A DNA stretch of 64,000 nt from Escherichia coli (GCF_044647545.1 NZ_CP172818.1); one strand, 5' to 3'. Positions 45,812 through 62,846 are shown, counted from the first letter of the stretch. Translations and numbers: made by a program. The notes: generated from the sequence alone by a model not told the origin.

Positions 45812-45887
45812 TCCTCTGTAGTTCAGTCGGTAGAACGGCGGACTGTTAATCCGTATGTCACTGGTTCGAGTCCAGTCAGAGGAGCCA
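45812..45887 (+). tRNA. asnT: tRNA-Asn (GUU)
   Basis: 76-nt TCCTCTGTAGTTCAGTCGGTAGAACGGCGGACTGTTAATCCGT...GGAGCCA. Confidence 0.95.
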
Positions 45888-46200
45888 AATTCTAAAAATT
45901 CGCTTTTTTAGCGCAATGTCACTGACCTTAGTTGAACATTGTTTTTTAACGGATAGCGGGTTTTTAACATCTTAAGCGCCCTCGACCTTTATGGTTGAGG
46001 GCGTTTTGCTATGAACGCCATCACCATTTTCCCCTCGATTATAAAACTTGAGTTATTCAGTAGTCTCCCCTCTTGCAACTCACACCCAAAACTGCCTAAC
46101 GAAAAGTTATTAATTTTCAATCATATTGCTATCAGTATTTACATTTTTTCGCTGTGCTAGAAAGGGCGCATTTATGTTAGCTCGTTCAGGGAAGGTAAGC

Positions 46201-49200
46201 ATGGCTACGAAGAAGAGAAGTGGAGAAGAAATAAATGACCGACAAATATTATGCGGGATGGGAATTAAACTACGCCGCTTAACTGCGGGTATCTGTCTGA
46301 TAACTCAACTTGCGTTCCCTATGGCTGCGGCAGCACAAGGTGTGGTAAACGCCGCAACCCAACAACCAGTTCCTGCACAAATTGCCATTGCAAATGCCAA
46401 TACGGTGCCCTACACCCTTGGAGCGTTGGAATCGGCCCAAAGCGTTGCCGAACGTTTCGGTATTTCGGTGGCTGAGTTACGCAAACTCAACCAGTTTCGT
46501 ACGTTTGTTCGTAATGTCCGCCCGGGTGATGAACTGGATGTCCAGGCACAAGTTAGTGAAAAAAATTTAACCCCGCCGCCGGGTAACAGCAGTGGCAACC
46601 TTGAGCAACAGATAGCCAGTACTTCACAGCTAATTGGATCTCTGCTCGCCGAAGATATGAACAGCGAGCAAGCGGCAAACATAGCACGTGGATGGGCCTC
46701 TTCTCAGGCTTCAGGGGTAATGACAGACTGGTTAAGCCGCTTCGGTACCGCAAGAATCACGCTGGGCGTGGATGAAGATTTCAGCCTGAAGAACTCCCAG
46801 TTCGATTTTCTCCATCCGTGGTATGAAACGCCTGATAATCTCTTTTTCAGTCAGCATACTCTCCATCGTACTGACGAGCGTACGCAGATTAACAACGGCT
46901 TAGGTTGGCGTCATTTCACTCCCACATGGATGTCGGGCATCAACTTCTTTTTCGACCACGATCTTAGCCGTTACCACTCCCGCGCCGGCATTGGCGCGGA
47001 GTACTGGCGCGACTATCTAAAATTAAGCAGTAACGGCTATTTGCGACTGACCAACTGGCGCAGCGCACCTGAACTGGACAACGATTATGAAGCACGCCCG
47101 GCCAATGGCTGGGATGTACGCGCAGAAAGCTGGCTACCCGCCTGGCCGCACCTTGGCGGTAAACTGGTCTATGAACAGTATTATGGCGATGAAGTGGCCC
47201 TGTTCGATAAAGACGATCGGCAAAGTAATCCTCATGCCATAACCGCTGGACTTAACTATACCCCCTTCCCGCTGATGACCTTCAGCGCGGAGCAACGCCA
47301 GGGTAAACAGGGCGAAAATGACACCCGTTTTGCCGTCGATTTTACCTGGCAACCTGGCAGCGCAATGCAGAAACAGCTTGACCCGAATGAAGTCGCTGCA
47401 CGGCGTAGCCTTGCAGGCAGCCGTTATGATCTGGTGGATCGCAACAACAATATCGTTCTGGAATATCGCAAAAAAGAACTGGTTCGCCTGACCCTGACAG
47501 ACCCCGTGACAGGGAAGTCAGGAGAAGTGAAATCACTGGTTTCGTCGCTACAAACCAAATATGCCCTGAAAGGCTATAACGTCGAAGCCACCGCACTGGA
47601 AGCTGCCGGTGGCAAAGTGGTCACAACGGGTAAAGATATTCTGGTTACCCTGCCGGCTTACCGGTTCACCAGTACGCCAGAAACCGATAACACCTGGCCG
47701 ATTGAAGTCACCGCCGAAGATGTCAAAGGCAATTTGTCGAATCGTGAACAGAGCATGGTGGTCGTTCAGGCACCTACGCTAAGCCAGAAAGATTCCTCGG
47801 TATCGTTAAGTACCCAAACATTGAACGCGGATTCCCATTCAACCGCCACACTGACTTTTATTGCGCATGATGCAGCAGGTAATCCTGTTGTCGGGCTGGT
47901 GCTCTCGACGCGTCACGAAGGTGTTCAGGACATCACCCTTTCTGACTGGAAAGATAATGGTGACGGAAGCTATACCCAGATCCTGACCACAGGAGCGATG
48001 TCTGGCACGCTGACGCTGATGCCACAGCTGAATGGTGTGGATGCGGCTAAAGCCCCCGCCGTGGTGAATATCATTTCTGTTTCGTCATCCCGAACTCACT
48101 CGTCAATTAAGATTGATAAGGACCGTTATCTCTCCGGCAATCCTATCGAGGTGACGGTAGAACTGAGAGATGAAAATGACAAACCTGTTAAGGAACAAAA
48201 ACAGCAACTGAATAACGCAGTCAGCATCGACAACGTGAAACCAGGAGTCACTACAGACTGGAAAGAAACCGCAGATGGCGTCTATAAGGCGACCTATACC
48301 GCCTATACCAAAGGCAGTGGACTTACTGCGAAGCTATTAATGCAAAACTGGAATGAAGATTTGCATACCGCTGGATTTATCATCGACGCCAACCCGCAGT
48401 CAGCGAAAATTGCGACATTATCTGCCAGCAATAATGGTGTGCTCGCCAATGAGAATGCAGCAAACACCGTCTCGGTCAATGTCGCTGATGAAGGAAGCAA
48501 CCCAATCAATGATCATACCGTCACGTTTGCGGTATTAAGCGGATCGGCAACTTCCTTCAACAATCAAAACACCGCAAAAACGGATGTTAATGGTCTGGCG
48601 ACTTTTGATCTGAAAAGTAGTAAGCAGGAAGACAACACGGTTGAAGTCACCCTTGAAAATGGCGTGAAACAAACGTTAATCGTCAGTTTTGTCGGCGACT
48701 CGAGTACTGCGCAGGTTGATCTGCAGAAGTCGAAAAATGAAGTGGTTGCTGACGGCAATGACAGCGTCACAATGACCGCGACCGTCCGGGATGCAAAAGG
48801 CAACCTGCTCAATGACGTCATGGTCACTTTCAATGTTAATTCAGCAGAGGCGAAACTGAGCCAAACCGAAGTGAATAGCCACGACGGGATCGCCACAGCT
48901 ACGCTGACCAGTTTGAAAAATGGTGATTATAGGGTTACGGCCTCTGTGAGCTCTGGTTCCCAGGCTAATCAACAGGTGAATTTTATCGGTGATCAAAGTA
49001 CTGCTGCCCTGACCCTCAGTGTGCCTTCAGGTGATATCACCGTCACCAACACAGCTCCGCAATATATGACTGCAACCTTGCAGGATAAAAATGGCAACCC
49101 ACTAAAAGATAAAGAAATCACCTTCTCTGTGCCAAACGACGTCGCAAGTAAGTTCTCGATTAGCAACGGAGGAAAAGGCATGACGGATAGTAACGGGGTT

Positions 49201-62500: not shown

Positions 62501-62516
62501 TGCAAGATGCTTGCCA
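62501..62516 (-). promoter_or_regulatory. sigma-54 promoter of nac
   Basis: minus strand reads TGGCAA-GCATC-TTGCA against -24/-12 consensus TGGCAC-N5-TTGCA, about 55 nt upstream of the nac ATG. Confidence 0.6.
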
Positions 62517-62770
62517 GTTTTATTTTGGCGTTGATGTACAAGCTAACCAACTGTCAAATAAGAGATTATGATAGATTCGTCATTGGCTCTTTTCACCAGC
62601 AGTCGCGTTCCCCTGCCCTATAAAAGGAGGGTATGCACCACGATGGTTCATTACCAATAAGATTGAAATCTCATCACTTTGTTGAAATTGACAGCAAACA
62701 AACAAAAAAATGCATTTCACCCTTTGACATCACCATGCACTGCCATTAATATGCGCCCCGTTCACACGAT

Positions 62771-62846
62771 TCCTCTGTAGTTCAGTCGGTAGAACGGCGG
62801 ACTGTTAATCCGTATGTCACTGGTTCGAGTCCAGTCAGAGGAGCCA
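62771..62846 (+). tRNA. asnV: tRNA-Asn (GUU)
   Basis: fourth identical 76-nt tRNA-Asn copy. Confidence 0.95.

Follow-up and report, generated by a model that had tools for sequence, protein, structure and literature searches.

The tRNA-Asn genes and their surroundings

The stretch of DNA considered here, 64,000 nt of Escherichia coli NZ_CP172818.1 (GCF_044647545.1), is referred to as the window, with positions counted from its first letter. It carries the four tRNA-Asn(GTT) genes asnT, asnW, asnU and asnV. The high-pathogenicity island (HPI) has its site at asnT, rarely at asnV, and the colibactin (pks) island at asnW (PMC7545054, PMC2606025), the latter, PAI-asnW, being 54 kb long (PMC7545054). 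All four sites read as empty in the window. For asnW, asnU and asnV this can be taken at face value. At asnT, however, the sequence that makes the site appear empty, in and just before the adhesin gene yeeJ, is that of K-12 MG1655 set between flanks of the kind found in HPI-carrying strains, and a conclusion from this window that the HPI is missing from asnT is unsafe.

The four genes, each of 76 nt, were found by both ARAGORN (anticodon gtt) and Rfam (RF00005, 72.6 bits each), and their alignment is identical across 84 columns, i.e. the gene plus 4 nt per side, which bears out the original prediction that all four are present as identical copies. The gene order, mtfA-asnT-yeeJ-GT9-shiA-amn-yeeN-asnW-yeeO-asnU-cbl-nac-asnV-ldtA (GT9 denoting a family-9 glycosyltransferase gene), is K-12-like, and the flanks of every tRNA agree with the K-12-type arrangement in annotated records. 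The arrangement is that of the canonical asnT-asnW-asnU-asnV region of E. coli, with the tRNA genes scattered among 17 kb of core genes (Table 1), and MG1655 has the same order, with four identical tRNA-Asn genes each with a promoter, and no islands. In the window, scanning placed a TTGACA-type promoter-like site of its own about 20 nt upstream of each tRNA-Asn gene, and terminator hairpins 3' of asnW and asnV, those 3' of asnT and asnU being legible in the alignment; the four genes are predicted to be independently transcribed. The 1154 bp visible 3' of asnV are ldtA, the same as in K-12.

The closest relatives include MS6198, of sequence type (ST) 648, phylogroup F and serotype O1:H6 (PMC8281228), and its 31,449-bp HPI served as a query. 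It has no match in the window by blastn, so no ybt, irp or fyuA was seen, and its integrase has none by tblastn. No integrase of any kind was found by Pfam among the ten main open reading frames (ORFs) of 44.8-62.5 kb, so that a P4-type integrase gene directly 3' of a tRNA is absent, and G+C content gives no sign of a foreign block in the window. The 17-nt core of the tRNA 3' end, CCAGTCAGAGGAGCCAA, which is the HPI attachment site, occurs window-wide in four copies only, even with up to three mismatches allowed (chance expectation 0.16), and extra 12- or 14-nt copies of the tRNA-Asn 3' end are lacking from the 64 kb. For the window sequence, then, the predicted absence of an integrase, of a duplicated tRNA 3' end and of a foreign block is confirmed. 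At asnW, the target gene of the pks island is intact and the island absent, yeeN-asnW-yeeO being contiguous as in MS6198; between asnW and yeeN, where neither a pks integrase nor clb genes were found, the gap is 453 bp as in K-12 and MS6198.

A set of 5426 complete E. coli genomes shows how common such sites are: yeeN-asnW-yeeO is uninterrupted in 4980, nac-asnV-ldtA in 4664 and mtfA-asnT-yeeJ in 2563. An integrase adjoins asnT in 2111 of them, and in 2061 the HPI right end is fused to yeeJ at one and the same junction. It is normal for asnW and asnV to be unoccupied, and the closest relatives have no insert at them either. The claim that the sites are unoccupied in the strain itself therefore stands for asnW, asnU and asnV, which are really unoccupied, as in the near-identical MS6198. 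It does not stand for asnT, on grounds taken up below.

As a separate matter, MS6198 has, about 6-11 kb past the point corresponding to the window's right end (30319-35293 of its locus) and 3' of cobU, a TonB-dependent receptor gene and ibrAB-like genes. Also there, about 9 kb past that end, are small pieces whose annotation is ClbP and a thioesterase (clbP, clbQ). They may be a remnant of the end of a pks island, and they are of relevance to clb screens of the source genome.

A mosaic yeeJ where HPI-carrying relatives have deletions

The region as a whole has no full-length match among the complete genomes, the best being at 98.8% and in five pieces. For its right part, 52629-64000, MS6198, ECONIH1, FDAARGOS_497 and others match with 100% identity. 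Against MS6198 alone, identity is 99.9% over 1-32526, the number of differences per kb is 0 across 31526-45888 and 50492-64000 if three small patches are set aside, and over 52631-64000 there is no difference at all. In MS6198 the HPI (int-ybtS...irp2-irp1...fyuA) begins right after asnT and is fused to yeeJ at what is window position 46476. FDAARGOS_497 likewise has int-ybt-irp-fyuA between asnT and yeeJ position 46476, and ST131 has the same asnT-HPI-yeeJ structure. MS6198 does not have 45889-46475 and 46799-50491, i.e. 587 bp and 3.7 kb, and all 2061 genomes with the HPI-yeeJ junction lack both; over the whole window, only 45892-46475 and 46799-50491 have no counterpart in MS6198. The structure in MS6198 and ST131 is that of the common E. 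coli HPI, for which a unique right-border deletion and, in the backbone beside it, a distinct mutation pattern have been described (Schubert et al. 2009, PMC2606025). In comparison with that island, the window shares the flanks, as represented by MS6198, and the adjoining yeeJ blocks with the same mutation pattern, but is without int, ybt, irp and fyuA and retains the 587 bp and 3.7 kb. The combination of an mtfA of ST648 type with an empty asnT occurs in none of the 5426 complete genomes (best match 99.5%).

The source of the retained sequence is apparent on comparison with MG1655. The window differs from it by 1-8% outside two difference-free runs, 45806-46507 (702 bp) and 46783-50536 (3754 bp). 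They are the two longest such runs in the window, the next being of 662 bp, and they cover exactly the segments missing from the HPI-positive relatives, with 0 differences in either 45889-46475 or 46799-50491. Exact matches to 46799-50491 are all in K-12 laboratory derivatives, with natural isolates from 99.9% down (in a sampled ranking of 3013 matching genomes). The yeeJ stretches that the relatives have kept are, in contrast, 5-8% diverged from K-12. The 323-bp block 46476-46798 matches the HPI-fused block of MS6198 and ST131 at 100%; from K-12 it differs by about 7% and by a 9-bp deletion. From 50537 on, yeeJ is again of HPI-linked type, with 100% identity to both MS6198 and ST131, as against about 92% to K-12-type strains. 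The switches of type fall within 46456-46507, 46783-47127 and 50491-50536, and the deletion endpoints of HPI-positive strains (46476, 46799 and 50492) coincide with them; even at 50491, one base before the retained block, the base is that of K-12. Examination for an HPI-linked flank thus finds its mutation pattern present (46476-46798 and 50492 onward) and the stretches that should be deleted present as K-12 sequence.

As a gene, this yeeJ is not intact. A frameshift at 50631 is common to HPI-positive strains, and a 1-nt deletion at 50954 is private to the window. Relative to K-12, one immunoglobulin (Ig)-like repeat (about 283 bp) and 454 bp of the 3' end are missing; K-12 yodB is likewise not in the window, and the fliC type differs. 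The 1486- and 1511-aa (amino acid) yeeJ ORFs of the window and of two records considered below, VE-V11-M and BHUCD01, are not on record in an index of 153 billion genes. The yeeJ ORF as query in a protein homology search brought up nothing but long repetitive YeeJ proteins, among which alleles are not separable. Scanning metagenomes for the mosaic junction yielded no match but was without power, the HPI-positive control junction being found in only one contig.

The distribution of sequence differences private to the window is also pertinent. Some 50 positions differ from MS6198, and about 46 of them are in or beside four of the five segments that cannot be aligned to MG1655, which total 1366 bp or 2.1% of the window. 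The central type-specific part (4097-5275) of fliC, an H6-type flagellin gene on the minus strand at about 4148-5790, has three frameshifts that leave four reading-frame pieces, with substitutions and single-nucleotide insertions or deletions relative to MS6198 in clusters about 150-220 bp apart; the damage looks like assembly error rather than biology. At 44105-44283, 179 bp stand in place of K-12 yodB, as in MS6198, with a garbled join at 44227-44254 where 42 bp are lost by comparison with it. The poly-C patch 52612-52630 reads ACCCCCCCCCCTCC where all relatives have GGTGCTATTTACCAAACAGTTCC, and it falls where homology to K-12 breaks at the yeeJ 3' end, K-12 having 454 extra bp there. Sequence comparison rejected K-12 as the origin of the patch, and the site is clean in every relative, the unrelated VE-V11-M included. 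The private 1-nt deletion at 50954 sits on the junction of the Ig-repeat deletion relative to K-12. Since private errors cluster in or at segments without K-12 homology, the accuracy of the window tracks that homology.

Origins of the mosaic

Both features are what an assembly templated on a reference would leave: reference-identical runs are confined to segments that the closest relatives lack, and private errors are concentrated where homology to the reference fails. It is quite likely that the source assembly was built on, or patched with, K-12 MG1655, with the HPI dropped and the yeeJ deletions filled. The source strain would be of ST648 type (phylogroup F, H6). Where its sequence has a homolog in K-12 the consensus would have been called correctly as strain-type, and short strain-specific replacements would have been rebuilt locally, with errors. 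The 31-kb HPI insertion would not have been reconstructable, and would have been lost, while the 587-bp and 3.7-kb yeeJ stretches absent from the strain would have been left as K-12 reference bases. The real strain, on this account of its assembly, probably carries the HPI at asnT. The predicted absence of the HPI there is unsafe because the asnT-yeeJ fill is MG1655 sequence exactly where HPI-positive relatives have deletions.

Several features sit less easily with a K-12 template. The window is no naive K-12 consensus: yodB, a porin gene, fliC and two yeeJ deletions are in the ST648 configuration, with no errors in the porin replacement (36740-37035). Why a pipeline should resolve deletions of 0.3-1 kb and not one of 3.7 kb is hard to explain. 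Further, no trace of the HPI is left at 45889 in the window sequence.

Attention is drawn to three other records in which asnT appears empty. BHUCD01 (NZ_CM183442.1), a chromosome record of 4,641,498 bp on MG1655 coordinates, has the same mosaic as the window, with SNP (single-nucleotide polymorphism) blocks of HPI type and a K-12-identical yeeJ fill. It is of another lineage and, unlike the window, keeps the K-12-only yodB, Ig repeat and yeeJ 3' end, and has the HPI-type base at 45889. A mosaic on MG1655 coordinates together with K-12-only segments means that this artefact exists in public data.

The second, Z1323PEC0010 (NZ_CP148282.1; locus 13597-21048), has a natural full-length yeeJ of HPI-linked type whose 323-bp block and 3' part are as in the window. 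Its 587-bp and 3.7-kb stretches, unlike those of the window, differ from K-12 by about 2%. Divergence sets in about 95 and about 190 bp ahead of the deletion endpoints of HPI-positive strains, the diverged zones overrunning these as expected of a coherent natural allele, and Z1323PEC0010 has SNPs of its own at 46381-46455 and 50302-50491, at which sites the window has K-12 bases. An origin of the mosaic as ancestral polymorphism was rejected on this evidence. No second coherent allele of this kind was seen in the 5426 genomes, and the locus is a candidate for the progenitor type at which the HPI of E. coli was fixed. A prophage occupies serU in Z1323PEC0010.

The third, VE-V11-M, was deposited as complete and has a mosaic with the window's boundaries (locus 21213-28022). 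Its K-type fill is three SNPs from K-12, two of which are natural polymorphisms shared with Z1323PEC0010. The nearest relatives are HPI-positive, including VE-V10-F of the same study. At 4.60 Mb it compares with 4.83-5.16 Mb for these relatives, and its O-antigen genes are frameshifted. The same assembly problem with another template may be involved. The record counts, though, among the points against templating on K-12, since the same boundaries with a natural-looking fill imply either that a natural route exists or that another template was used there. (An IS1-bounded inversion of cbl...cobU is also present in VE-V11-M.)

Such a natural route is the next explanation to be weighed, and an unlikely one: the strain would be truly HPI-free, an HPI-positive ST648 ancestor having lost the island by homologous recombination with K-12-like (ST10-type) commensal DNA. 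The event would restore the 587-bp and 3.7-kb stretches and yet leave the diverged homologous blocks recipient-type at every SNP, which could come about by exchanges stalled at heterology borders, or by heteroduplex mismatch repair with large loops escaping. In its favour, recA-dependent recombination of flanking DNA is how the HPI moves in E. coli (PMC2606025), natural members of the ST648 complex without the HPI (ST1485) are reported (PMC9630279), and K-12-like yeeJ alleles at 99.9% are common among natural isolates; VE-V11-M, with its fill and its HPI-positive kin, also fits. However, four exchange points would be needed at the block edges, inside stretches where identity extends over just 32, 16 and 45 bp, there are zero donor SNPs in blocks that are 5-8% diverged, and the natural donor would have to be identical to laboratory K-12 over 4.3 kb. 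At least two independent origins, for the window and for VE-V11-M, would have involved different donors, the absence of the 1486-aa ORFs from the gene index is unfavourable, and the private errors in segments not homologous to K-12 are left unexplained.

Simple precise excision of the HPI was rejected, as it could not restore 587 bp and 3.7 kb that HPI-positive relatives do not have. A contiguous import from a BHUCD01- or VE-V11-M-like source was also rejected, position 46544 and the 323-bp block being ST648-type between two K-12 stretches. That all four sites, asnT included, are ancestral and never occupied, in a strain with neither HPI nor pks island, is very improbable: the population counts for empty asnT, asnW and asnV and the intact, trace-free asnT of HPI-negative ECOR strains (PMC2606025) are in keeping with it, but one coherent yeeJ allele would be expected, and the window instead has HPI-linked blocks, complete with their frameshift and deletions, in a K-12 remainder, with both flanks identical to HPI-positive genomes. 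The mosaic contradicts it for asnT; for asnW, asnU and asnV it stands.

The locus itself is ordinary textbook E. coli, with a data-quality caveat attached. Calls of no island at a tRNA gene can fail when an assembly is templated on an island-free reference, and what gives the case away here is that the runs identical to the reference fall where HPI-carrying relatives have deletions. Virulence-gene surveys relying on such records would call a probable yersiniabactin-positive ST648 strain negative. Were the mosaic real, it would be a documented case of a fixed pathogenicity island lost through recombination, and with it a natural route to precise reversal of a 'locked-in', non-excisable HPI and its flanking deletions.

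Mapped features and minor observations

Table 1. Genes and other features mapped from serU to ldtA
Feature	Position	Strand	Evidence or remark
serU, tRNA-Ser(CGA)	44731-44820	-	ARAGORN, Rfam; no island attached; zinT 0.6 kb away
mtfA (yeeI), ST648-type allele	44914-45711	+	Pfam Peptidase_M90
asnT promoter-like site, TTGACA-17-TAATAT	45765-45793	+	Scan
asnT, tRNA-Asn(GTT), 76 nt	45812-45887	+	ARAGORN, Rfam
asnT terminator, yeeJ promoter and yeeJ 5' end, 587 bp	45889-46475	+	K-12 comparison
yeeJ, inverse-autotransporter adhesin, pseudogene	46201-52636	+	ORFs 46201-50661, 50697-50969, 51059-52636
yeeJ block, 323 bp, HPI-linked type	46476-46798	+	Comparison with MS6198, ST131
yeeJ 3.7-kb stretch, K-12-identical	46799-50491	+	Deleted in HPI-positive relatives
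Poly-C patch, window-unique	52612-52630		K-12 with 454 extra bp at junction
yeeL, family-9 glycosyltransferase	52780-53895	-	Pfam, homology
shiA, shikimate transporter	54147-55463	+	Pfam, homology
amn, AMP nucleosidase	55502-57019	+	Pfam, homology
yeeN, YebC family	57362-58078	+	Pfam, homology
asnW terminator-like hairpin	58470-58440		Scan
asnW, tRNA-Asn(GTT)	58532-58607	-	ARAGORN, Rfam
asnW promoter-like site	58654-58626		Scan
yeeO, MATE transporter	58708-60348	-	Pfam, homology
asnU, tRNA-Asn(GTT)	60356-60431	+	Promoter-like site 60312-60339; cbl directly after
cbl, LysR family, frameshifted	60469-61487	-	Pfam, homology
nac, LysR family	61528-62475	-	Pfam, homology
asnV, tRNA-Asn(GTT)	62771-62846	+	Promoter-like site 62724-62752; terminator 62853-62880
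ldtA (erfK), immediately 3' of asnV	62902-63837	-	Homology

Of the genes between the tRNAs, cbl is split into a 297-aa and an 81-aa ORF, and in MS6198, whose sequence is identical here, it is annotated as frameshifted. The serU gene, which is a known island site too, is unoccupied in the window. Two small RNAs, DsrA (27383-27469, minus strand) and RseX (35805-35894, plus strand), are full length by Rfam. Beside fliE, at about 14700-14840, homology to MS6198 and K-12 annotation identifies a short intG-like integrase remnant that is unrelated to the asn tRNAs.

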